Below, piece after piece: positions 3,790-55,261 of a stretch of 64,000 nt of DNA (within the stretch, counting starts at the first letter, position 1; every line of letters begins with the position of its first letter). Source of the DNA: Candidatus Marsarchaeota archaeon (GTDB taxonomy: Archaea > Micrarchaeota > Micrarchaeia > Micrarchaeales > CABMGC01); the NCBI GenBank assembly GCA_023379055.1, contig JAMCSX010000017.1, positions 35,868-99,867 of the forward strand, given 5' to 3'. The position numbers were made by a program, and so were the translations under genes. Under the pieces are notes generated by a model. The model saw only the letters and a program-made list of their open reading frames with translations. It searched no databases and was not told the origin of the DNA.

Positions 3790-5031
3790 TCATTTCTTTT
3801 GCTGGATATTGTCCTTGAATGCCTTTAAGACCGGAAGATCCATTCCGGAGATAAATGCAAGCGCTGACCCGCCGCTGGTTATCCTCTTTCCCCCTAGCAG
3901 GTCGTATGCCCTGTCAAGCCCTATGTCGTCCACCGAGTCTGCGGAATTTCCGCCGAAGGTGTAATTCAGCGCCTTCTCCCCCATGAACCGCGTTATCAGC
4001 CTTATGGTCTGGTTGTAGCCTTTCTCATATCGTCCTACGGGGCCTGCATAGACTATCATCTCTGAACGGTCTATTTCCTCGAAGAATCTGGCAAGCGTTG
4101 CATCGCCTATGTCGGCTATGCTGCCCTTGCCAGGAAGGTTCTCGAGTGTCGCTGTCCCTCCGCCTTCTATTATGAAGTCCGTAGGCGCTATGACCCTGTT
4201 CCCGAATTCGCGCACTAGCCTTGAAGCCGTATCAATACTCCCGGTACCATTTATGAATCTCTCATTAGCACCGGTGAAGCTCTCCTTGTTGGTAACGTAT
4301 CGTACGGATTGTCCAGGCACGCCTCCGCAAAGTACGGTTACATTATTGTTCTTGGCAATCTCATACACATACTCGAATTTCTCCCATTTCTTTCCCCCGA
4401 ATATCACGGATGTCTTCTTTCCGGAACTGATGCTTGATGCAATCTCCTCCAGAATCTTGAGCTCAGATTCCATCTGAAGGCCCAGATATGAAGGTAGCAC
4501 TGGCAGGAACCCTATCAGCGAGGTGTCGGATCTGTGCATTGTGGCAGGCGCATCGTTTATGAATATCCCTGCCAGTCCTGCAAGCGACTTTACCATCCTT
4601 GAATCCGACATCTCCTTGACAGATCTGAACCCTGCCTTCTCGTCATCGTCGTCCCTGACGTTCTTTAGCATTAGCACCTCCCCCTCTTTCAGGTCCGATG
4701 CGGCCTTTGCGGCTGCATCGTTGGTAAGCGAGTCGACATACTTGACCGATAGGCCCTTGGTAAGCGACTCTATGACCTGGGCGTGCTGCTCCATGCTTTC
4801 CAGATAGTCGCTATCGCCCCTTCTTCCCTGATGGCTGAGGATTATTGGCGTCAGTCCGCTGTCGGAGTAGGTCTGGATGGATTTTGCGCACGACTTGAAC
4901 CGGAGATTGTTCCTGCTCACCTGCCCTTCCTTTACTGGCACGTTTATGTCGACCCTGACAAGCGCCTTGCCCTTTATCTTCCCCAGCTGGCCACTTATGA
5001 AAACCTCTTGCGGAAGCTGCATCGGATTCAC
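3790..5031 (-). CDS. pgk: phosphoglycerate kinase
   Basis: 413 aa. ALVRVDINVPV and ILSHQGRRG near the N-terminus, with archaeal PGK length and layout. Its start overlaps the fbp stop by 4 nt. Confidence 0.9.
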   Translation of the reverse strand: MNPMQLPQEVFISGQLGKIKGKALVRVDINVPVKEGQVSRNNLRFKSCAKSIQTYSDSGLTPIILSHQGRRGDSDYLESMEQHAQVIESLTKGLSVKYVDSLTNDAAAKAASDLKEGEVLMLKNVRDDDDEKAGFRSVKEMSDSRMVKSLAGLAGIFINDAPATMHRSDTSLIGFLPVLPSYLGLQMESELKILEEIASSISSGKKTSVIFGGKKWEKFEYVYEIAKNNNVTVLCGGVPGQSVRYVTNKESFTGANERFINGTGSIDTASRLVREFGNRVIAPTDFIIEGGGTATLENLPGKGSIADIGDATLARFFEEIDRSEMIVYAGPVGRYEKGYNQTIRLITRFMGEKALNYTFGGNSADSVDDIGLDRAYDLLGGKRITSGGSALAFISGMDLPVLKAFKDNIQQKK

Positions 5032-6110
5032 TTGAATCTCTTCCTGGCTTCTCCCATCATTGCACGATATCCCTTGCTGTATTCAAGCTCCTCCGGTATC
5101 AAGGTTGCAGGATGCACGAAACCCTGCTCCCTCATCATCTCGGCCTTCTTTACGGCCTTGGTCCTGAAGTAGTCCCAGTCGGGGGTTTCAAACGCGTCTG
5201 TGTGGGCCGTGAATTTGCCCTCATGCATGCTGAATAGCAGAGCACTGACTATGGGTATGCAGTAGTTTGCCGTGGCCGCAGTTTTTATCTTTACAGGCAT
5301 CAGTGGCATGTGGTGGCTGCCACGCGTGTCGCCTGCAACGTAGTGCACTGTCTTGAAAACTGAGCATGCCTCCTCAGTAGCCGGGAAATCCTTCTGGAGC
5401 CTGATCAGTGCTGCAGGATCATCCTTTCCGACGTATGTGCCGCCTATGTTATGCAGCCTGTCAGTTGTGGCGGACAGTATTGGGTCTGTCGCATTCCTTA
5501 CAGAATCTATGACATACCTGCCAGGATACATGAGCACAGTGGCTATGAGGAAATTGTCCTGAGGTATGCTGAACTCCGCCTTCTTGTTGTCCATTACATC
5601 CATTACAGTAAGCTTGACTTCGCTTGCAAGTTTGGGGTTCACTATAAGCCCGGTGTTTGCAGAGGGCTCGCAGAATAGCCTGTATAGCGGATAGTTGAAC
5701 GCGCCAGGCTCGGTCTTGTCCATGGTTATTAGCGCGAACGCCTCATTAGGCCTCTCCTCGAACTCCATCTCGGCGACTCCGGGACCCATGCCCTTTACAT
5801 TTCCTGAAAATGAATCCTTCAGAAGGTCCTGGCCTGCGCCGTACAGCCCCTGGCCTTTTGCAACATCCGCAGCTGCCTTGAATGCATCCCATGCAAGTTT
5901 ATGCACTTTGCTGCTGTTAACCCCGTTCTTGTGTGACATCAGTATGTGTATGTCGTCTCCGGTGTACCCTATGTATGTGTCTATAAGCCCTGCCTTTGCC
6001 TTGTTCTTCTTTACGAAACGCTCCACACTGCTCAGAAGCTCGTCGCTTGGTCGGGTATGACCGCCTATCGAGCCCACATCTGCCTTTATCGCTGTTACGG
6101 TTATTCTCAT
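5028..6110 (-). CDS. fbp: bifunctional fructose-1,6-bisphosphate aldolase/phosphatase (class V FBPase)
   Basis: 360 aa. The N-terminus MRITVTAIKADVGSIGGHTRP and the overall sequence match the archaeal FBP aldolase/phosphatase family. Confidence 0.9.
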   Translation of the reverse strand: MRITVTAIKADVGSIGGHTRPSDELLSSVERFVKKNKAKAGLIDTYIGYTGDDIHILMSHKNGVNSSKVHKLAWDAFKAAADVAKGQGLYGAGQDLLKDSFSGNVKGMGPGVAEMEFEERPNEAFALITMDKTEPGAFNYPLYRLFCEPSANTGLIVNPKLASEVKLTVMDVMDNKKAEFSIPQDNFLIATVLMYPGRYVIDSVRNATDPILSATTDRLHNIGGTYVGKDDPAALIRLQKDFPATEEACSVFKTVHYVAGDTRGSHHMPLMPVKIKTAATANYCIPIVSALLFSMHEGKFTAHTDAFETPDWDYFRTKAVKKAEMMREQGFVHPATLIPEELEYSKGYRAMMGEARKRFK

Positions 6111-6352
6111 TTTATTACCTATTACGCCACTGTTGGCATCTTACACATAATCCTTGTGCACATAGCTGCAGTCCCACTTCCTTCCCGGATATTCAGATGT
6201 GACATCCTCCAATTAATGTGACACCGTTTTATCGAATACTATAACGCAATAACACCTTTTATAACTTTTCTTATCGGTTAATTTGCGAGGTCCACGGTTT
6301 ACACTGGACATCAGGACTGCCAAGTACTGCATCGAATGCAGTGCGGCGAATC

Positions 6353-7369
6353 CTACAAAGAGAGCCCTATGCCAAGGCTTCTGTCGGTTTTCTCTATAGA
6401 CTTTGCGGCATCCTTCTCGATGCTGCACATGGCGCGTATTGCGTCCACGTTCTCAGGTACGACATCTGACTCCTGGTGTACTGCCTGCATGTACTCCAGC
6501 CTGCTTCCATCTACCAGCATCTCCTTCCAGACCGCTATCTCGTAGAGGTCTCCCATTCCCCGCCCCATGTCCCTTGCCATGTCCATAAGGTGTGCAGTGG
6601 ACGCGAGCCCGTCCCTTGCGGATACCGCCACTATTCTTCTGTACCCCGACCATGCGTCGAGTAGCTCATCGCTTGTCGCCCCGCTTCCAAGCTCCACGGT
6701 CACGTGATGTATGTGCATAAGGGTGGTGGATGCCTTTATCGCTGTGGTGCTTATATTCAATTCTGGAATCACCGTCTTCACGTCATCGCCGTGATGCGAC
6801 GGCATCTGCTTCTCAAGTTCAAGAGCGTTTATTGGCCCCTTCTTGGTCTCGGAGGGGTCTGCAGCGCGCCTTACGAGAAACGCGTTGACGGATTTTATGC
6901 CGAATGCGGCCTTCAACGGAAAGAGCGTACGTAACAGCCCGGTAGTGTTGCATGACACAACCCTTGCATATCTTGCCCCGAATGCCTGCCCGTAGTTGGC
7001 GTATGCATTGAATGAGAGCCCAGATATCGAATGCTCCTCTCCGCCCTGCCATATCGCCCTGCATCCTGCCTTTTCGTACAGTGGCTTGTTCTTCTCGCCT
7101 ATGCCTTCGGGAGTGCAGTCCACTATGATGTCGACGTTCTGCAACAGGTCGTCTATTGTACCGGAAACTACCACGCCTGCCCTGTCGAAGGCGCCGGTGC
7201 CAGATAGATCTGACGAATATATCTTGAATCCCTTCGCAGATGCCAGCTTGGCCTTATAGTCGGGATGCCCCTTCGCTATCCCCACAAGCTCCATGTCGTC
7301 CTGCTTTGATACGGCGTAGGCTATGCGCCTGCCAATAACCCCGTAGCCGTTTACCCCAACCCTTACCAT
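6353..7369 (-). CDS. gap: glyceraldehyde-3-phosphate dehydrogenase, archaeal type II
   Basis: Contains VGVNGYGVIGRR (Rossmann motif) and SCNTTGL (catalytic Cys). I place the start at the internal Met (MVRVGVNGYG, 7369) rather than at the ORF-track start 7450. Confidence 0.9.
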   Translation of the reverse strand: MVRVGVNGYGVIGRRIAYAVSKQDDMELVGIAKGHPDYKAKLASAKGFKIYSSDLSGTGAFDRAGVVVSGTIDDLLQNVDIIVDCTPEGIGEKNKPLYEKAGCRAIWQGGEEHSISGLSFNAYANYGQAFGARYARVVSCNTTGLLRTLFPLKAAFGIKSVNAFLVRRAADPSETKKGPINALELEKQMPSHHGDDVKTVIPELNISTTAIKASTTLMHIHHVTVELGSGATSDELLDAWSGYRRIVAVSARDGLASTAHLMDMARDMGRGMGDLYEIAVWKEMLVDGSRLEYMQAVHQESDVVPENVDAIRAMCSIEKDAAKSIEKTDRSLGIGLSL

Positions 7370-7463
7370 AAGACTCAGTTGAATGTTGCCGTCAAACAAA
7401 TAAAAGCCTTTGGTAGGCAGGTCGGACGAACATTTTTTTAATTTGATCATGCATCATACTCTC

Positions 7464-8204
7464 ATGAAGACGATACTGTTCAATTTCAAGACCTATGTTG
7501 ACTTTGACAGCACTATCAAGCTTGCGAACCGCATAGGGAAGATAAGGACAAAACATCGCCTAATAATTGCGCCGCCGACGCTTTTCATACACGCGCTTTC
7601 TGTGGTATTGAATAGCAAGAAGGTGGAACTGTGCGCACAGGACTTCGATTACCAGGAAAGCTATGGAGCACATACTGGCGACGTGCTCATAGAGGACCTC
7701 AAGGACCTTGGGTGTAGATATGTCTTGATAGGGCATTCTGAGGTCAGGAACAGAAAGGATCCGCACAAAGGGGACAGCGAGGAGCTTGTAGGCATAAAGA
7801 CCAGGATGTGCCTGAAGAACGGCCTTACTCCAGTGCTATGCTTCGGGGAGAAGCATGAGGAGAAGGAGGCGGGAATTGCCAAGGCCGTAATATCGAGGCA
7901 GCTTGATACTGCACTTGACGGCATAAGCAGGAAGAAGAGAAGGGGGATAATATTTGCCTATGAGCCGGTCTGGGCGCTCAGTTCGACTGCTGGCGCAAGG
8001 CGATGCGACGTAGGCTATGCAGAGAGAATGGCAGTGCATGCAAGAAAGGTGGTGGGATGCGGCAGGGGCGCAGTGCTCTATGGAGGCAGCGTGGATAAGG
8101 ACAATATTACAGATTACATCTCAAACAGGAGGCTTGACGGGGTGCTGGTAGGAAGGGCAGGCACGGACTTAAAGTCGCTGGGACGCATTGCCGGACTGCT
8201 ATAG
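7464..8204 (+). CDS. tpiA: triosephosphate isomerase
   Basis: Contains MKTILFNFKTY, GHSEVR, YEPVWAL and YGGSV. The start is moved to MKTILFNFKTY (ORF-track start 7410). It is divergent from gap. Confidence 0.85.
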   Translation: MKTILFNFKTYVDFDSTIKLANRIGKIRTKHRLIIAPPTLFIHALSVVLNSKKVELCAQDFDYQESYGAHTGDVLIEDLKDLGCRYVLIGHSEVRNRKDPHKGDSEELVGIKTRMCLKNGLTPVLCFGEKHEEKEAGIAKAVISRQLDTALDGISRKKRRGIIFAYEPVWALSSTAGARRCDVGYAERMAVHARKVVGCGRGAVLYGGSVDKDNITDYISNRRLDGVLVGRAGTDLKSLGRIAGLL

Positions 8205-8894
8205 CCTTGAAGCTGCAGCCTTGTCTAACACAAAAACAGTGTCATCATGTTCCTGCAGAAACGACGCTGGCACATTGCTTGTTATGCCTCCCCTCACCGC
8301 AAGCCTTATTGCGTCGCTTTTCTCCTCTCCGGAGGCAAGAAGCATTATGCGCCTTGATTCCATTATCTCGTTTATTCCCATTGTTATGGCCATGTTTACC
8401 TTTGCATTATTCCGCAGTATGGTGTCAGACGAGAGCGATACCATCCTTATCCTTGAATTTCTCTCAGACCCGGGCTCATTGAACCCTATGTGACCGTTGT
8501 GCCCGATACCAAGCACCTGAAAGTCAAGAGGCCCCTTGCTCCGGTATGCATCGGCATAGAGCCTTACTGAATTGTCCCAGTTAAGCTCGGAATTTGGAAG
8601 ATAGACATCGTTACCTTCAATATCTATGTTATTGAACAGCCTCTGGGCCATATAGTAGCTGTAGCTGCTTGGATCTGACCTGCTTATCGGGTAGTATTCG
8701 TCTAGATTGAAGGAAACCTTGCCCTTGAAGGACAGCCTGCCAGACTGGCACTCCCTGGAAAGCAGATCATAGAGCAGGATCGGAGTATTGCCTGTAGCAA
8801 ACCCAAGAGATACCGAATCCTTCATTGCTTCCTTGAAGATCAGGAACGCCTTCTCTGACATATCTTTATAATTATCGCATACTATTATCTTCAT
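8199..8894 (-). CDS. nagB: glucosamine-6-phosphate deaminase / NagB-Pgl family sugar-phosphate isomerase
   Basis: Contains GFATGNTP, FNLDEY and GIGHNGHIGFNEPGS. The 3' end overlaps the tpiA 3' end by 6 nt (convergent genes). Confidence 0.8.
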   Translation of the reverse strand: MKIIVCDNYKDMSEKAFLIFKEAMKDSVSLGFATGNTPILLYDLLSRECQSGRLSFKGKVSFNLDEYYPISRSDPSSYSYYMAQRLFNNIDIEGNDVYLPNSELNWDNSVRLYADAYRSKGPLDFQVLGIGHNGHIGFNEPGSERNSRIRMVSLSSDTILRNNAKVNMAITMGINEIMESRRIMLLASGEEKSDAIRLAVRGGITSNVPASFLQEHDDTVFVLDKAAASRL

Positions 8895-8943
8895 CTAACT
8901 ACGCTTCTGGTTATATACGATTAGTATTTGGTTGGGATAATTT

Positions 8944-9393
8944 ATGAATATTGCCATTTCTTCTGATGAAAAAAGCGACATTGCAGATTTCGTTGCCAGA
9001 TATCTGAAAGGAAGGGGGCATAGGGTAAGAAGGTTTGGTGCGGTATCTAAAAGGGCTGTGGACTGGGCTGATTCGAGTGAAGAGCTTGCAGAGGAAGTAG
9101 CAGGTGGAAAATGTGATCAGGGAGTGCTCTTTTGTTGGACCGGGACAGGATCCAGCATTGCAGCAAACAAGGTCCCAGGAATTCGCGCTGCGCTCTGCGT
9201 TGACTCCGAAGAGGCGCGCTGCGCAAGGAGATGGAATCATGCAAACGTGCTAGTGATAAGTACGAGGCTCACATCAGAGCATATTGCCAGGGAGATACTT
9301 GATGCCTGGTTTTTAGAGCCGGACGGCTCGAGCGCATATGACAAGAGAAATGTAAAAAAGCTGGCGGATATTGAGAGAAGGCATATGGGGTAA
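8944..9393 (+). CDS. rpiB: ribose-5-phosphate isomerase B (RpiB/LacAB family)
   Basis: 149 aa. The pattern MNIAISSDE...CWTGTGSSIAANKVPGIRAALC is typical of RpiB. Confidence 0.8.
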   Translation: MNIAISSDEKSDIADFVARYLKGRGHRVRRFGAVSKRAVDWADSSEELAEEVAGGKCDQGVLFCWTGTGSSIAANKVPGIRAALCVDSEEARCARRWNHANVLVISTRLTSEHIAREILDAWFLEPDGSSAYDKRNVKKLADIERRHMG

Positions 9394-9397
9394 CCTT

Positions 9398-9907
9398 ATG
9401 GGCATAGTGGATATATTCATGCGCAACAGGAAGTTTGTGAATTGCAGCCTTAATAGTTTGGAGGAGTATTCGCGCATCCTCTCAGGGAGGATAATAGCGG
9501 GAAATGGAAAACCGGATGCAATAGTATACATAGAGAGAGGAGGCATGGTGATAGGCAGACTACTTAGCGATGCGCTTGGTGTAAAGCGTGTTGCAGGAAT
9601 AAATGCAAGCTATTACAGAGGTATTGGGAAAAAGGCGCACAGCGTGTCTGTAGGCGAGGTGCCGAGACTTGGAAGAAAAGGCGGATACCTGTTGCTTGTC
9701 GACGATATAGCAGACACCGGAAAGACGCTTAAGAAGGTATCTGCCCGAATAGCAAGGAGGCATGGCGGAAAGGTGCTCACATGTACGGTATTCTACAAGC
9801 CAAGATCTGAGGTGAGGCCAGACTTCTATGTGAAGGAGATAGGCAATGACAGATGGATTGTCTTCGAATATGAGAAGCGCGAATTCGATTACCTGAGGCA
9901 CAGATAA
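9398..9907 (+). CDS. purine phosphoribosyltransferase family protein
   Basis: Carries the PRPP-binding motif [14 protein letters not shown]. The start is moved to the Met at 9398, just after the rpiB stop (ORF-track start 9371). Confidence 0.7.
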
Positions 9908-19620: not shown

Positions 19621-19678
19621 TAAGATCACACAGATTAGCAACTATTATATTAGTATTGAGATACATAAATCTTTTGTT

Positions 19679-19753
19679 GCTCCGATCATCTAGTCCGGTC
19701 AAGGATGCAGGCCTCTCACGTCTGAAACCCGGGTTCAAATCCCGGTCGGAGCA
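19679..19753 (+). tRNA. tRNA-Glu (anticodon CUC)
   Basis: Hand-folded cloverleaf. Acceptor GCTCCGA/TCGGAGC, D arm ATCT..GGAT, anticodon arm CAGGC-CTCTCAC-GTCTG, T arm CCGGG-TTCAAAT-CCCGG. Confidence 0.85.
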
Positions 19754-19794
19754 AATAATATTTGGGGTTATATATAACCCCAGCAAATAATATT
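19751..19794. repeat. 12-bp direct repeat (gcaaataatatt) flanking a perfect 20-bp palindrome (tggggttatatataacccca)
   Basis: Read directly from the sequence. Repeat copy 1 is at 19751-19762 and overlaps the last 3 nt of tRNA-Glu. The palindrome is at 19763-19782 and repeat copy 2 is at 19783-19794. Confidence 0.9.
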
Positions 19795-21703: not shown

Positions 21704-21743
21704 GACTAATTGATGCATAGGCAGCTTATCAGGAAAACATGAA

Positions 21744-21764
21744 ATAAGGGGCTTCGCCCCTTAT
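21744..21764. repeat. GC-stem hairpin ataaggggc-ttc-gccccttat (copy A of a two-member family)
   Basis: 9-bp stem with a 3-nt loop. It lies 41 nt downstream of the ClC stop and 60 nt downstream of the tnpA stop. A related copy is at 62342-62359. Confidence 0.75.
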
Positions 21765-21823
21765 AAACCCTAAGCACGGGCGGGTTCCTCCGCAGCAAGC
21801 TAGCGGTATCTCACCCGCCCGAA

Positions 21824-22303
21824 TCAGTTGAATTGCAGTTTCATCTGATGTCCTTCCTCTTCGTGTTGCAGAAACGGTTCGAAGGAGACATCCTGTCTTC
21901 TGATGTAATTCTGTATTATATTTTCGCCGACAGGACCGACACTGCTGTTACTATACTGTCCTCCCCAGAAATGTTTCTTGGGATATCGTTTTGTGAAGTT
22001 CGGCATTTCTTTGAAGATTTTTGATGCGGAATGCGACTTCAGGATCTGTACGACCTGTTCCATTGAAAGGTTGTTTGGCACATTTACTTCCATATGCACG
22101 TGTGCATAATCGTCTCCAAATGAGAACTCCTTTATTTTTATCTTGTACTGCATCTCAGTTTCTCGAAATGCGTCTGCAACAACCTTCTGCGTCTTCGAAT
22201 TTTTGAATACTTTGAATCGGTACTTTGATACAAGCACAATGTGCTCAAAATTGTATTGGAAGTCCGATACATTTTTATGATTTCCATGAGTTATACTCAC
22301 CAT
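21824..22303 (-). CDS. tnpA: IS200/IS605-family Y1 (HUH) transposase TnpA
   Basis: 159 aa. The HUH motif is in YAHVHMEV and the catalytic Tyr is in IIQNYIRRQ. Confidence 0.85.
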   Translation of the reverse strand: MVSITHGNHKNVSDFQYNFEHIVLVSKYRFKVFKNSKTQKVVADAFRETEMQYKIKIKEFSFGDDYAHVHMEVNVPNNLSMEQVVQILKSHSASKIFKEMPNFTKRYPKKHFWGGQYSNSSVGPVGENIIQNYIRRQDVSFEPFLQHEEEGHQMKLQFN

Positions 22304-22382
22304 TGCATTACTTCGGCGCGACGAACATCACGTCGCGTCAAGTATTTTTCCTCCTCAAAGCGTATATTTACTGCAGAATCAG

Positions 22383-22420
22383 TTCAACCCCCAACGAGGT
22401 TGGGGGAATTCTCTAGGTAT
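22383..22420. repeat. IS200 outer-end hairpin block ttcaaCCCCCAACgagGTTGGGGGaattctctaggtat
   Basis: 8-bp stem with a 3-nt loop at 22388-22406, with conserved flanks. A second copy with a compensatory stem change is at 53539-53576. Confidence 0.8.
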
Positions 22421-22447
22421 TAAAATCCTTGTTGTTGATATGTTATC

Positions 22448-30600: not shown

Positions 30601-30777
30601 TTAGCTGTGATTTCTTACTACAACTATTGGTATTGCCTCCTCCTTAAACTCCAGATCAGCAAGCGCAAGAGGGTCAGTGACTCCCTGCGGCACTTTTATA
30701 AGTGGCGGTGCGCCGTATGCCAGCTGAAGCGCCCTGGCACCGATTATGGTTGCCTTTTCGAATTTTGTGTATTCCAT
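30601..30777 (-). CDS. rpoK: DNA-directed RNA polymerase subunit K (Rpo6)
   Basis: MEYTKFEKATIIGARALQLAYGAPPLI matches RpoK. The start is moved to this Met (ORF-track start 30819). Confidence 0.8.
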   Translation of the reverse strand: MEYTKFEKATIIGARALQLAYGAPPLIKVPQGVTDPLALADLEFKEEAIPIVVVRNHS

Positions 30778-31059
30778 CTGCTCCCCAGCACTAAGTATGA
30801 TGTGTAAATAACCAAGCATGATTATTAGTATAATAAGTCTTTTATAGCTATGGGATTAGACGAAAATTTGGGCTCTCCGGTTTCAGGTGTATGAAGGAAT
30901 TGGTAGAGTAGGCCATGTTGCCGAGCCGCTTCACTTTCATGACCTTTCCCATATTAGCATTGAGATCCCTCCATGAAAATCCCCTGCTACGAAGAGGTTA
31001 TGTATCGCCGAAGGTGCTTTTATGGTTTGAGGTAGCCATGCGGCGCTTGAACTGATTAT

Positions 31060-31689
31060 TTATTTCTTCTTGATTGGTTTTTGAAGTAAAATATAGAACC
31101 GTCTGCTTTTAAAGTAAAATCTTATTGTTTTATAATCTCCGAATAGATTCTTAAGTTCTGTCTTTGTAAAGTAATGGTAATAATCCCCGCGACTACCATG
31201 CCTGTATGTTCCGTCTTCCCTTGTTTTAATCTGACCGTAAACTCTTTTTCTTTGCCATGTAAAGTGCTGATCACTTTCAATATAAAAATATCCCCCGGTT
31301 TTCGTTATCCTATCAATTTCTTTTACATACTTTTCAATATCGGCCATTTTTGCCTGATACAGAGCCCGAACAGCGATTACCGCGTCAAAAAAGCCGTCTT
31401 TATATGGCAACTTGCCCTTAAGCATTGATAATTTGAATTTTACTTTGGTTTTAGCACGCACCTGTTTCGTCAGTGCCATTTGTATTGCTATTTCAGATCT
31501 GTCGAAACCATAAATTTTGAACCCCTTTTTTGCTAAGAATATGGAGTTTCTACCTGCGCCACAATAAAAGTCAAGAATCCGTTTTACACCTTTTTCCTTG
31601 AAAAAAGTGCTTAAATTATTCATGCTTTTCGATGGATGTTGTTGCCCGACACCTGAACCTTTATAATAACGTTCGTAACCATCTTTCAA
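31060..31689 (-). CDS. class I SAM-dependent methyltransferase
   Basis: Carries motif I ILDFYCGAGRNS and post-I GFDRS. The gene is markedly AT-rich: 26% GC by hand count over 31081-31180. Confidence 0.8.
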   Translation of the reverse strand: MKDGYERYYKGSGVGQQHPSKSMNNLSTFFKEKGVKRILDFYCGAGRNSIFLAKKGFKIYGFDRSEIAIQMALTKQVRAKTKVKFKLSMLKGKLPYKDGFFDAVIAVRALYQAKMADIEKYVKEIDRITKTGGYFYIESDQHFTWQRKRVYGQIKTREDGTYRHGSRGDYYHYFTKTELKNLFGDYKTIRFYFKSRRFYILLQKPIKKK

Positions 31690-31729
31690 TCATACACCTA
31701 TTGTGTTTCCTATCTTATACCTTTATACT

Positions 31730-32110
31730 TTATCCTTTATTAGCCATACGGCGTTTGAGTGCGTCTATTTTTTTATTTATTTCTTTGGCAGACCCCTCTT
31801 TGTCCTCTACTTCCACTATCAGATAAGTGTAAGGCTCGTTCTTGAATTCTATCGTCAGGCATTTGTTAATGTCGCGCATTGCAAAAAACGCCTTCTTACC
31901 ACGGAGCAGGTATCTTCCCTCCTTGATTATGCCTGGCACGCCAGTGCCCCCGTATCTGATGCCTTCCAGCCATTTCCTGCTTTCTGTTGTTATCGAAACA
32001 ACATTCTGCAATGAGAACCGGAGTTCCTTCATTTTAAGCGCTGCTATCTTCTCCCAACCCAGAAATTCCACAACAAGCGCATCTCCATCAATGCTTATCT
32101 TGTGCACCAC
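31730..32110 (-). CDS. hypothetical protein, possibly bacterial-PH-like fold
   Basis: 126 aa ORF in the same AT-rich patch. The beta-rich pattern followed by a C-terminal helix is reminiscent of bPH domains. This is a weak call. Confidence 0.5.
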   Translation of the reverse strand: MVHKISIDGDALVVEFLGWEKIAALKMKELRFSLQNVVSITTESRKWLEGIRYGGTGVPGIIKEGRYLLRGKKAFFAMRDINKCLTIEFKNEPYTYLIVEVEDKEGSAKEINKKIDALKRRMANKG

Positions 32111-32587
32111 TTAATTCATCCCGATTACTTATTTGGTATTTGTAATAAACCTTTATATAGAGGCTATCAAGGAGCGCTGCGGCATTTGAGCTCTGCGTGC
32201 ACACCCGCGCCCTAAAGTGCCGTGCAGGTGCGTTATCTAAAGTGTGGTTTAGGTTGCTGTAACTGTTTTATGAAAAACCAAGTGGGATAATAACGTATGT
32301 CCAAACGCCTGCTGCTATAACATAAAGTGTGAGGATAGCATATAATACAAAAAGGATAACTGCTGTCCAACTCGACTTTCTTAAAAGCATGAAGAATATG
32401 CTAGATAAAAGGGATGCTATAACTAGGAAAATAATAACGTGTAATTGTTGGTAAAAGTATAAAAATATTCCCTGTAAATCCTGTTTTTTGTCTGTTCTAG
32501 CCCTAGCCCCTTAAGCATGCCCGAAAAAGCCGTTCCCGGAGGACGTCCTGCATGTTTTGCCAGCCTTCAAGCCCCCTTTTTCTAGAT

Positions 32588-53435: not shown

Positions 53436-53515
53436 ATTTGCTTTGGCCAAAAAGGGGATTTTGCTTGGTGCTTTTGGATTTTTAGCCGACTGATATCAAA
53501 ATATTGAACGACGAT

Positions 53516-53528
53516 CTTAGGAGGGGAT
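53516..53528. repeat. 13-bp copy (cttaggaggggat) of the 3' end of tRNA-Thr(UGU); att-like distal repeat
   Basis: Exact match to 55193-55205, which lies inside the tRNA gene (T-arm/acceptor 3' strand), in the same orientation and 1.68 kb away. Confidence 0.6.
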
Positions 53529-53538
53529 GGGAAAATAA

Positions 53539-53576
53539 TTCAACCACCAACGGGGTTGGTGGAATGCTCTAGGTAT
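53539..53576. repeat. orphan copy of the IS200 outer-end hairpin block ttcaaCCACCAACgggGTTGGTGGaatgctctaggtat
   Basis: Aligns with 22383-22420. The stem change C>A in the 5' arm is matched by G>T at the pairing position of the 3' arm. No transposase gene is adjacent. Confidence 0.8.
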
Positions 53577-53599
53577 ACTACATTGATATCCCATACATA

Positions 53600-53728
53600 T
53601 CATTTCGCATATTCTTCGGGTGCCTTATCAAACTTTTCTTTGCATCCAAGAGAGCAGAAACGGTACTCATCGCCGGTCTTGGACGAGAAGATGGCCTTTG
53701 CAGATGCACGGCCTTGATGCACAGGCAT
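53600..53728 (-). CDS. YHS-domain miniprotein (42 aa)
   Basis: Below the ORF-track cutoff, so translated by hand: MPVHQGRASAKAIFSSKTGDEYRFCSLGCKEKFDKAPEEYAK. The C-terminal Y.FCS.GCKEKF...PE.Y is the YHS signature. The usual N-terminal Cys of DPVCGM reads His here. Confidence 0.6.
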   Translation of the reverse strand: MPVHQGRASAKAIFSSKTGDEYRFCSLGCKEKFDKAPEEYAK

Positions 53729-53792
53729 AACTCAGGAGACTATTGCTTTCGAATTCATACCATAGCTTAACAAGTACCGGATTTCTATGTTA

Positions 53793-54560
53793 TTAAAGTC
53801 CATCTTCAATAAGTAGTTCTGACGACATATTCATTATTTTATTCCAATTGGCTATTTTTAATCTTTTAAGTTTCTTTCGTAGTATAAGGTATGCAAGGGT
53901 ATAGCCTGCCCAGTGCGGAAATTCCTTATCGTCTGGACTTAAGAAGACCCTGTAATGAAGGTCTCTGCTTTTAATATCCAATTTCCCATTCAGTTTTGCC
54001 CACGTTTTTTGGGCCTGAGAGTTTGTTATGGCTGTTGACCAAGGCCTTATTGTTCCAACGCTATCCTCCTCAAAACACTGAGCTAGGCCTTCTAGGACTA
54101 GACTATCTAGGAGAGTAAAGTATCTAGGCAATTTGATTCTTTGGAATCTTATCGCATGATTGAATTCATGTGCAACCGTACCTATTATATACTTCTTCCA
54201 TTTAGATTTGATATTTATTGTGAGAAACAAAGTGTATGCGTTTTGTGTATAACCCGCTATTCCGCCCATTTTATCCTTAACAAATTCATCCTGAGTAGAA
54301 GAAGCAATAATTACTATATCATTTTCAATCTTTAGTAATTTTGATGCCGTCAGTAGACCCTTCTTTAAGAAGGGTATTGTTTTTTGCAGATTCATCTCAT
54401 AGTTTATTATGATTTTATAATTTCCAATTTTTAAATGTGAGACATCAAAATGCCTACCAACATCCCCAACGAGCTTACTTTGATTAGGAGTCATCTTTCT
54501 TGTCTCCATTTCTGTTTTTGTTGCAATCATATTCTCGCCTACTATAATATGTTCGTTCAT
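53793..54560 (-). CDS. putative zinc metalloprotease (DUF2268-like, HExxH)
   Basis: 255 aa with GTVAHEFNHAIRF. The gene is very AT-rich: 26% GC by hand count over 53793-53892, against 52% over 627-726. Confidence 0.65.
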   Translation of the reverse strand: MNEHIIVGENMIATKTEMETRKMTPNQSKLVGDVGRHFDVSHLKIGNYKIIINYEMNLQKTIPFLKKGLLTASKLLKIENDIVIIASSTQDEFVKDKMGGIAGYTQNAYTLFLTINIKSKWKKYIIGTVAHEFNHAIRFQRIKLPRYFTLLDSLVLEGLAQCFEEDSVGTIRPWSTAITNSQAQKTWAKLNGKLDIKSRDLHYRVFLSPDDKEFPHWAGYTLAYLILRKKLKRLKIANWNKIMNMSSELLIEDGL

Positions 54561-54624
54561 ATTATTAATGCTTTCAGTCGTATTTTCCCGATATATTGTC
54601 CTGAGAGTACTTATTTAATCGTGA

Positions 54625-54656
54625 CATCCTCCCACCGATAAATCGTGTGGGCTTCC
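54625..54656 (-). repeat. hairpin repeat copy A (minus strand: ggaaGCCCACaCGAtttaTCGGTGGGagg)
   Basis: 5-bp outer stem plus 3-bp inner stem with a ttta loop and conserved flanks. The partner copy lies 160 bp away in the same orientation. Confidence 0.75.
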
Positions 54657-54706
54657 AATGATTGATGATTTTTATGAAAAACCAAAAACCAAATATAGTT
54701 CTCAAT

Positions 54707-55140
54707 TCAACGACACAGCTTGCAACTGTCGACTTTGCAGTTGTAGAGGCAAATATCTCCAAGAGAGTTAATTCGGGTGCGTCCCACCCTCCCACGACTA
54801 AAGCCCGTGGGCTTTCCATAAGCTGATGAAACATGTCGCACAGCAACAATCGGTTCAACAACCGCATCTGGACGAATGAGCCCGTCTACAGGGACTCGCC
54901 TATTGGAGATCTGGAAAGAATCACGGTTAGTGGCATCTCTCCGCTCCAACAGGGATTTTATGGCAATATTCAAACTTGCCTCGTCTTTCCAGAGCCTGTT
55001 GAATTCAGAATTCTCCTTCAAAGAAAAGTCCCTGGGAATTCTACCCTTCTTGGCAGTAATTCCATCAATCTGCTTTCTTCAAGGTCTTTCATTCCGTGTT
55101 TAAGCCAAGTTCCTATCTCGATATCAAAATCCTTTGCCAT
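54707..55140 (-). pseudogene. frameshifted / degenerate ORF of unknown family next to tRNA-Thr
   Basis: Reading from ATG 55140 gives MAKDFDIEIGTWLKHGMKDLEESRLMELLPRRVEFPGTFL*. A second frame is open across the same junction (..KQIDGITAKKGRIPRDFSLKENSEFNRLWKDEASLNIAIKSLLERRDATNRD...) and then runs through the hairpin repeats. I am not confident of any family; a vague HEPN-like helical pattern is all I see. Confidence 0.3.
54785..54817 (-). repeat. hairpin repeat copy B (minus strand: ggaaaGCCCACgGGCtttaGTCGTGGGagg)
   Basis: Same architecture as copy A. The inner stem differs by compensatory changes (CGA/TCG versus GGC/GTC). The G-T pair only forms on the minus strand. Confidence 0.75.
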
Positions 55141-55189
55141 TATGTCGGGTTTATCCTCTCCAGGCTTTGCTCTTTAAGTCTTTTAGGTG

Positions 55190-55261
55190 AGCCTTAGGAG
55201 GGGATCGAACCCCCGACTTCCGGTTTACAAAACCGGCGCTCTACCACTGAGCTACTAAGGC
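55190..55261 (-). tRNA. tRNA-Thr (anticodon UGU)
   Basis: The reverse complement folds as acceptor GCCTTAG/CTAAGGC, D arm GCTC-AGTGGTA-GAGC, anticodon arm CCGGT-TTTGTAA-ACCGG and T arm GGGGG-TTCGATC-CCCTC. Confidence 0.9.

Follow-up and report, generated by a model that had tools for sequence, protein, structure and literature searches.

A decayed accessory islet beside the tRNA-Thr(UGU) gene in an uncultured archaeal lineage

The stretch analysed here is 64,000 nt of contig JAMCSX010000017.1 (the window), and our subject is the interval between the rpe stop codon and the 3' end of the tRNA-Thr(UGU) gene (positions 53437-55188, 1752 nt). The interval is a decayed, immobile, tRNA-adjacent accessory islet, and this description holds under every reading considered below. 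It contains a gene for a YHS-domain miniprotein, an intact gene for a putative protease of the DUF2268 family, and three relics of IS200/IS605 insertion sequences (IS); nothing in it can now catalyse its own movement. The original prediction had proposed a decayed integrated element at this tRNA, with a 13-bp repeat of the tRNA 3' end bracketing a 1.7-kb AT-rich cargo. Relatives for comparison were found via Rpe homologs and the contigs that carry them. Rpe is 92% identical to that of the window in L081 and L082, and 72% identical in L083. The features of the locus are listed below.

53437-53522, no strand: window-specific spacer of 86 nt after the rpe stop codon, ending in CTTAGGA, the 7 outer nt of the left 13-mer
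53516-53528, plus strand: left (distal) copy of the 13-mer CTTAGGAGGGGAT, exact match, candidate attR-type scar
53523-54489, no strand: 967-bp block common to the window and L081, 95.3% identity (blastn), holding the next hairpin and the YHS and DUF2268 genes
53539-53576, minus strand: orphan IS200-type left-end hairpin, 34/38 identical to 22383-22420
53600-53728, minus strand: gene for a YHS-domain miniprotein of 42 aa, putatively metal-binding (PF04945, 3.8e-9)
53793-54560, minus strand: intact gene for a DUF2268-family HExxH putative Zn-protease (PF10026, 5e-25; HEFNH)
54620-54659, minus strand: solo right-end hairpin of IS605/TnpB type (repeat family, pattern search, fold)
54780-54819, minus strand: right-end hairpin of the TnpB remnant, overlapping the end of the TnpB reading frame (repeat family, pattern search, tblastn, fold)
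54791-55073, minus strand: C-terminal pseudogene remnant of an IS605-family TnpB (homology search, tblastn)
55074-55188, no strand: tRNA-proximal segment of 115 nt, holding the ATG and the first ~22 codons of the frameshifted open reading frame (ORF)
55189-55261, minus strand: intact tRNA-Thr(UGU) gene (ARAGORN; Rfam 73.4 bits), 72/72 identical to that of L081
55193-55205, plus-strand letters, inside the minus-strand tRNA-Thr(UGU): right copy of the 13-mer CTTAGGAGGGGAT

The two 13-mers carry the argument for a tRNA-targeted event. Their coordinates, orientation and position relative to the tRNA were as originally described (exact search, ARAGORN, Rfam). Only two exact copies of CTTAGGAGGGGAT exist in the window, both on the plus strand. 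The right copy spans the last part of the T-loop, the 3' strand of the T-stem and 5/7 acceptor nucleotides; at a distance of 1.68 kb, 3' of the tRNA, the left copy has the identical orientation. No exact match to tRNA-Thr(UGU) in the 64 kb is longer than the 13-mer, which among 98 fetched loci is confined to tRNA-Thr genes. A third-order Markov model fitted to the window predicts 0.028 one-strand matches in 64 kb to any 13-mer of the tRNA, in agreement with the approximately 0.04 estimated earlier; the expectation falls to 7.6e-4 in the 1752-nt interval and to 7e-5 in the 165-nt intergenic stretch between rpe and the YHS gene. Local alignment against the tRNA scores 26; among 300 shuffled versions of the interval, the best scored 28 and the 95% quantile stood at 21. 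The 13-mer is not a common motif and its origin by chance is unlikely. An 11-mer, GATATCAAAAT, at 53492 and 55120 is at chance level. As a separate observation, tRNA-Thr(CGU) (395-468) and tRNA-Glu(CUC) (19678-19754) have in common an exact T-arm 13-mer, GGGTTCAAATCCC. T-arm 13-mers can recur between tRNA genes; CTTAGGAGGGGAT adds acceptor-stem bases specific to tRNA-Thr(UGU).

Comparison with the relatives identifies the interval as a variable accessory site, since its content differs among the window, L081, L083 and L091. The flanks of the window and L081 are 87.6% identical on the rpe side and 91.3% identical on the permease side. Homology on the rpe side ends at the rpe stop codon, and homology to L081, L083 and L091 starts exactly at the tRNA 3' end (55190). 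Between these points, L081 and L082 likewise have the YHS-DUF2268 block after rpe, and both edges of the block are abrupt, with non-homologous DNA outside. The left edge, the homology breakpoint at 53522/53523, falls inside the left 13-mer; in L081 and L082 the rightward GGGGATGGGAAAATAA and the hairpin are common to the window, and AGCCCTAT stands in place of CTTAGGA. The 86-nt spacer of the window has no similarity to the 27 nt at the equivalent place in L081 and L082, by alignment or blastn.

The distance from rpe to the tRNA is 1.75 kb in the window, 3.2 kb in L081 and 0.54 kb in L083. In L081 it holds the YHS and DUF2268 genes, a nitroreductase fragment, an intact TnpB IS (406 aa) and a HicA/HicB pair beside the tRNA; the last three all lie between DUF2268 and the tRNA, and none of them is in the window. 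In L083, only a DUF2283/DUF4258 toxin-antitoxin pair lies between rpe and the same tRNA, and YHS and DUF2268 are absent. In L091, a 1-kb contig, the tRNA is identical and the gene after it differs. The more distant L092 and L093 have no tRNA after rpe, and synteny is lost. A metagenome scan with the 3' half of the tRNA returned two contigs only, a duplicate of L083 and L091. The search of genome contigs with Rpe was dominated by the conserved HIDVMDGM pattern; among the matches listed, the relatives had <=51% identity and were mostly bacteria, with no usable synteny.

By sequence inspection only, a nitroreductase-like gene precedes DUF2268 in L081 (11669-13240), where it is cut by the TnpB (IS605 OrfB) element. 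In L099 (1-367), a nitroreductase-like gene recognised in the same way also precedes DUF2268, beside an IS200-like hairpin, GGGGCGAAGCCCC. The L099 arrangement indicates an older gene pair in which nitroreductase comes first and DUF2268 second.

The YHS and DUF2268 genes are both as originally described, a 42-aa miniprotein and an HExxH protease-like protein. The YHS match scores 36.8 bits (gathering score 30.3), and the protein is 41% identical to a YHS miniprotein encoded on L094, a contig assigned to a Marsarchaeota metagenome-assembled genome (MAG; GCA_023484965.1), where the gene adjoins that of a YHS-type P-type ATPase. The DUF2268 match scores 88.6 bits (gathering score 23.6), and H131, E132 and H135 of the HEFNH motif are unchanged across 8 homologs. 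The true start of DUF2268 is likely the ATG at 54494, the upstream 22 codons being window-specific. With its hidden Markov model (HMM) match, HExxH motif and other invariant residues, the protein resembles the predicted Zn-dependent proteases of PF10026 (YjaZ-like). Its archaeal subfamily is small: 18 relatives were detectable among the 5.8e9 clusters searched, in unrelated, non-syntenic, accessory contexts, and these are only 25-34% identical to plasmid-borne DUF2268 members of bacteria. Exact-protein look-ups with the Rpe and DUF2268 of the window gave no match, possibly through differing start codons.

DUF2268 is compositionally foreign. The gene has the lowest GC content (0.353) and the lowest GC content at third codon positions (GC3, 0.328) in the window. 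Ranked against every 768-bp window it falls at the 0.16% quantile, and it overlaps the lowest of these (0.349, starting at 53802); GC3 over 50 genes averages 0.535 with a standard deviation of 0.064, which gives DUF2268 z = -3.2. The earlier hand counts, 0.26 over 53793-53892 and 0.52 over 627-726, are exact. The interval as a whole is not uniformly AT-rich, since low GC is limited to about 53.73-54.70 kb, and both the YHS gene and the TnpB relic are higher (0.46-0.53 for the relic and 54700-54999). The AT-rich cargo of the original prediction is therefore real for the DUF2268 stretch and not for the full 1.7 kb.

DUF2268 also differs from its neighbours in divergence. Between the window and L081, third-codon-position identity is 0.843 for ABM, 0.824 for the permease, 0.884 for YHS and 0.940 for DUF2268 (DUF2268 versus permease, Fisher p = 1.6e-5), and the synonymous-site divergence of DUF2268 is about three times below that of the flanks. 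Given an identity of 0.940 as opposed to 0.824-0.843, DUF2268 has been common to the window and L081 lineages more recently than the core genes, having circulated between related strains.

Much of the remaining interval derives from insertion sequences. The orphan left-end hairpin (53539-53576) begins 11 nt past the left 13-mer, as predicted, and folds with -19.3 kcal/mol (z = -1.7); its counterpart in L081 keeps the stem and has a changed loop. It may double as a terminator-like hairpin downstream of the YHS gene. The likely source family is represented in the window by an apparently intact IS200-type insertion sequence at 21740-22430, whose TnpA gene (21824-22303, minus strand) encodes a Y1 transposase of 159 aa (PF01797, 1.8e-25), with the left-end hairpin upstream at 22383-22420. 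The right-end hairpins of this copy, at about 21745-21820, read GGGGCTTCGCCCC and CGGGCGGG...CCCGCCCG. We rejected an origin of the 86-nt spacer, or of the 27 nt of L081, in the right end or interior of an IS200, as neither has similarity to the intact copy.

The two further hairpin repeats noticed earlier, at 54620-54659 and 54780-54819, are right ends of TnpB elements. The first matches, over 36 nt and at 89% identity, the right end of the intact TnpB IS of L081, in the opposite orientation. The second overlaps the frameshifted ORF that abuts the tRNA, which is real and can now be identified as a TnpB C-terminal pseudogene. Corrected for the frameshift, this ORF had no match in Pfam, NCBIfam or PHROGs; it matches TnpB C-termini only, in homologs that carry PF07282 or are named IS605 OrfB. 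By tblastn, 54791-55073 is 80-86% identical to TnpB homologs, and the remnant amounts to ~90 C-terminal codons with a frameshift. Positions 54871-55073 are 92.6% identical in DNA to L094 4021-4223. The two copies end at the same nucleotide on their upstream side, which suggests a miniature, non-autonomous TnpB-derived mobile unit, not a random deletion product, and would imply that such a miniature element has spread across lineages. The 115 nt between the remnant and the tRNA (55074-55188) have no match in any fetched locus or in the phage and plasmid collections, and the sequence in this position beside the tRNA differs among the window, L081, L083 and L091.

No TnpA was found in the interval, and all three IS200/IS605 copies are fragments. 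The possibility that YHS-DUF2268 is a passenger between IS200/IS605 ends was rejected on the orientation of the orphan left end: it faces away from both genes, which would place the IS200 body on the rpe side. IS200/IS605 elements are not known to duplicate their targets, and thus they account for the hairpins and the pseudogene and not for the 13-bp repeat. The interval is composed as a mosaic: at least four pieces differ in origin, and three of them are the IS200/IS605 relics.

A parallel to the 13-bp repeat was found beside a different tRNA. L084, another archaeal contig (ENA ERZ25039479 contig_48683), has a 5.8-kb island (3884-9749) with a DUF2268 homolog on the 3' side of tRNA-Pro(UGG). 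A direct repeat of 68 bp (3884-3951 and 9681-9749, about 93% identical) brackets the island and consists of 57 nt of downstream flank and 11 nt of the tRNA 3' end. Beyond the DUF2268 homolog, the cargo includes a GmrSD defence gene and a gene for a second HExxH protein (291 aa), and no integrase was recognised in the island. A frameshifted gene in the island is LAGLIDADG-like by motif inspection only. The other DUF2268 homologs are not beside tRNAs.

We suspect that the islet goes back to an old tRNA-targeted integration, with the 13-bp repeat as its scar, and that IS200/IS605 elements, deletions and strain recombination then reworked the islet; in our judgement this account has about an even chance of being right. 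In this scenario, an element carrying a tRNA-Thr 3' segment would have integrated site-specifically, with the tRNA rebuilt at one junction and a partial copy of it left at the far junction, next to rpe. Most of the element, the integrase included, would later have been lost, and IS200 and IS605/TnpB insertions, internal deletions and segment replacements may then have altered the interval. In Archaea, tRNA genes are the usual targets of such integrations, an intact tRNA is rebuilt, and the attachment (att) sites can be short or reach outside the gene (PMC8371274). An att scar is favoured by the improbability of the repeat, its geometry, the coincidence of the left copy with the homology breakpoint, the hotspot-like site and the parallel in L084.

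Several observations weigh against this account. The repeat is short, at thirteen base pairs, and gapped alignment of 53437-53540 with 55061-55215 did not extend the repeat past 13 bp. Next to the distal 13-mer stands ATC in place of the GCT of the tRNA, so that the last 3 nt of the tRNA are missing, although the original tRNA end is expected at the distal junction after conservative recombination in which the tRNA is rebuilt (PMC8371274). The attL/attR geometry originally claimed thus stands for the common orientation and the position 3' of an intact tRNA, and fails for the terminal GCT. The repeat is also not kept in the nearest relatives. L081 and L082 carry the YHS and DUF2268 genes and lack the outer 7 nt of the 13-mer, having GGGGAT only, which goes part of the way toward the original prediction's own counter-case of relatives with the same genes and no repeat. 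A degenerate, longer copy of the tRNA end in L081 (AGCC...GGGGAT, AGCCCTATGGGGAT) was considered and rejected as not significant (P about 0.15); a second look-alike beside the L081 tRNA, GCCTTAGGGGATTGGAAC, is below the top local alignment scores. No tRNA fragments were detected in the variable intervals of L081, L083 and L091, and an empty rpe-tRNA site was not found in L081, L083, L092 or L093. The YHS gene has a host-like GC content (0.488) and a roughly core-like divergence.

Searches for the machinery and relatives of an integrated element point the same way. Screens of all ORFs of the interval with Pfam, NCBIfam and PHROGs gave neither an integrase nor a fragment of one, as had been noted from the sequence alone. 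An SSV-type split integrase was rejected because the tRNA-adjacent ORF is of TnpB origin and does not run across the repeat. The whole cargo gave no blastn match in the plasmid and phage collections, and the cargo proteins had no match among phages or in IMG/VR; matches among plasmids were limited to distant bacterial DUF2268 genes, so that a relationship of the cargo to archaeal plasmids or viruses is not borne out. The tRNA-Thr(UGU) 3' segment, the putative attP junction and relatives of the DUF2268 gene were not found in IMG/VR. Of the integrated-element remnant first proposed, what survives is an accessory, variable site with a repeat beyond chance expectation. It is not the remnant of one element, and neither an integrase nor an empty site was found for it.

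The same interval could be an intergenic hotspot, permissive to IS insertions and small accessory genes and trimmed by illegitimate-recombination deletions, in which no tRNA-specific integration took place and the 13-mer arose by chance. This is the main rival account; it is possible, and we consider it rather doubtful. Three IS200/IS605 relics within 1.75 kb are what such a site would accumulate, and the independent intact TnpB IS in the L081 interval and the IS200-like hairpin by the nitroreductase-DUF2268 pair of L099 fit it as well, as do a repeat that is not conserved in L081 and lacks the last 3 nt of the tRNA, and the missing integrase. Chance is also helped by the expectation of 0.03 13-mer matches in the whole window, given that many kinds of pattern had been screened for the original prediction. 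However, the geometry observed is expected by chance only at 1e-4 to 1e-3, the 13-mer match coincides to the nucleotide with the comparative breakpoint at 53522/53523, and insertion sequences that make no target duplications cannot yield the repeat. If instead the YHS and DUF2268 genes had been inherited vertically and the differences were normal intergenic divergence, the occurrence of the block at the same site behind rpe in both the window and L081/L082 and the host-like GC of the YHS gene would be expected. We regard this native origin as largely refuted and highly improbable, since the block is absent from L083, the GC3 of DUF2268 is 3.2 standard deviations under the gene mean, synonymous-site divergence is ~3x lower than in the flanks, both edges of the block are abrupt with non-homologous DNA outside, and DUF2268 homologs are rare and non-syntenic.

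The islet could also be a cis-mobilisable mini-island, that is, an integrase-less unit with att-like repeats at tRNA 3' ends that an integrase encoded elsewhere would move in trans, with DUF2268 as typical cargo. This is unlikely in our view, even though it would place the 68-bp repeat at tRNA-Pro around the integrase-less 5.8-kb island of L084 and the 13-bp repeat and DUF2268 gene of the window under one mechanism, and would suit the recent exchange of DUF2268 between lineages. There are only two examples, with cargo unrelated apart from DUF2268; the repeat in the window is short, not common to L081 and without the tRNA end; the other DUF2268 homologs have no tRNA beside them; and an excised or circular form and attP were not detected in IMG/VR. 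A wider proposal, that small integrase-less archaeal islands with tRNA-3'-derived repeats (13 bp at tRNA-Thr in the window, 68 bp at tRNA-Pro in L084) constitute a cis-mobilisable class that is moved in trans and ferries the rare DUF2268 gene among acidophilic Thermoplasmatota, would be a little less likely again.

A decayed tRNA-adjacent islet is an ordinary and already known kind of genome feature (PMC12302457, PMC8371274). Genomic islands of acidophilic archaea tend to have low GC, are sometimes flanked by tRNAs with direct repeats, and span 4-92 kb (PMC12302457). The islet is like the degraded tRNA-adjacent islands and tyrosine-recombinase elements of Archaea (pNOB8 and SSV types) in its position 3' of an intact tRNA, in the same-orientation partial copy of the tRNA 3' end at its far boundary, in its low-GC foreign gene, and in a content that varies between relatives and includes toxin-antitoxin pairs at the site. 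It differs from them in lacking an integrase, whole or split into Int(N) and Int(C), in a repeat of 13 bp that is 3 nt short of the tRNA end and not kept in the nearest relative, and in its size of 1.75 kb, far under the 4-92 kb range (PMC12302457), with no viral or plasmid genes found. Compared with IS200/IS605 elements and their miniature derivatives (palindrome-associated or MITE-like units, and TnpB with a right-end ωRNA region), the likeness lies in a left-end hairpin whose homolog belongs to a TnpA-bearing copy in the window, in a TnpB C-terminal frame that runs into the right-end hairpin, and in the recurrence of the truncated unit, at 92.6% identity, in an unrelated MAG. The difference is that the copies in the interval are all fragments without a transposase, and that the 13-bp repeat is unexplained by such elements.

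These findings show a tRNA-adjacent site in an uncultured lineage (called Thermoplasmatota) in which foreign genes and IS200/IS605 debris have collected. Their value is mainly in annotation. The frameshifted ORF becomes a TnpB relic, the hairpin becomes an orphan IS200 end, and a rare, recently exchanged DUF2268/HExxH gene is flagged as accessory cargo. If the att-scar reading is true, tRNA-Thr(UGU) would be an integration target in this lineage.

Two other places in the window deserve mention. The 13-mer AGCAAATAATATT occurs at 19750 and 19782, its first copy overlapping the last 5 nt of tRNA-Glu(CUC) (19678-19754, plus strand), and the two copies flank a perfect 19-nt palindrome, TGGGGTTATATATAACCCC, within an intergenic stretch of 33% GC (19750-19794). 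The pair may represent either a terminator whose flank has been duplicated or what a tiny insertion left behind. A SAM-methyltransferase gene (31060-31689, minus strand) within a low-GC patch (30700-32200) has a GC content of 0.356 and a GC3 of 0.338, the second lowest in the window, and is probably another laterally acquired gene.

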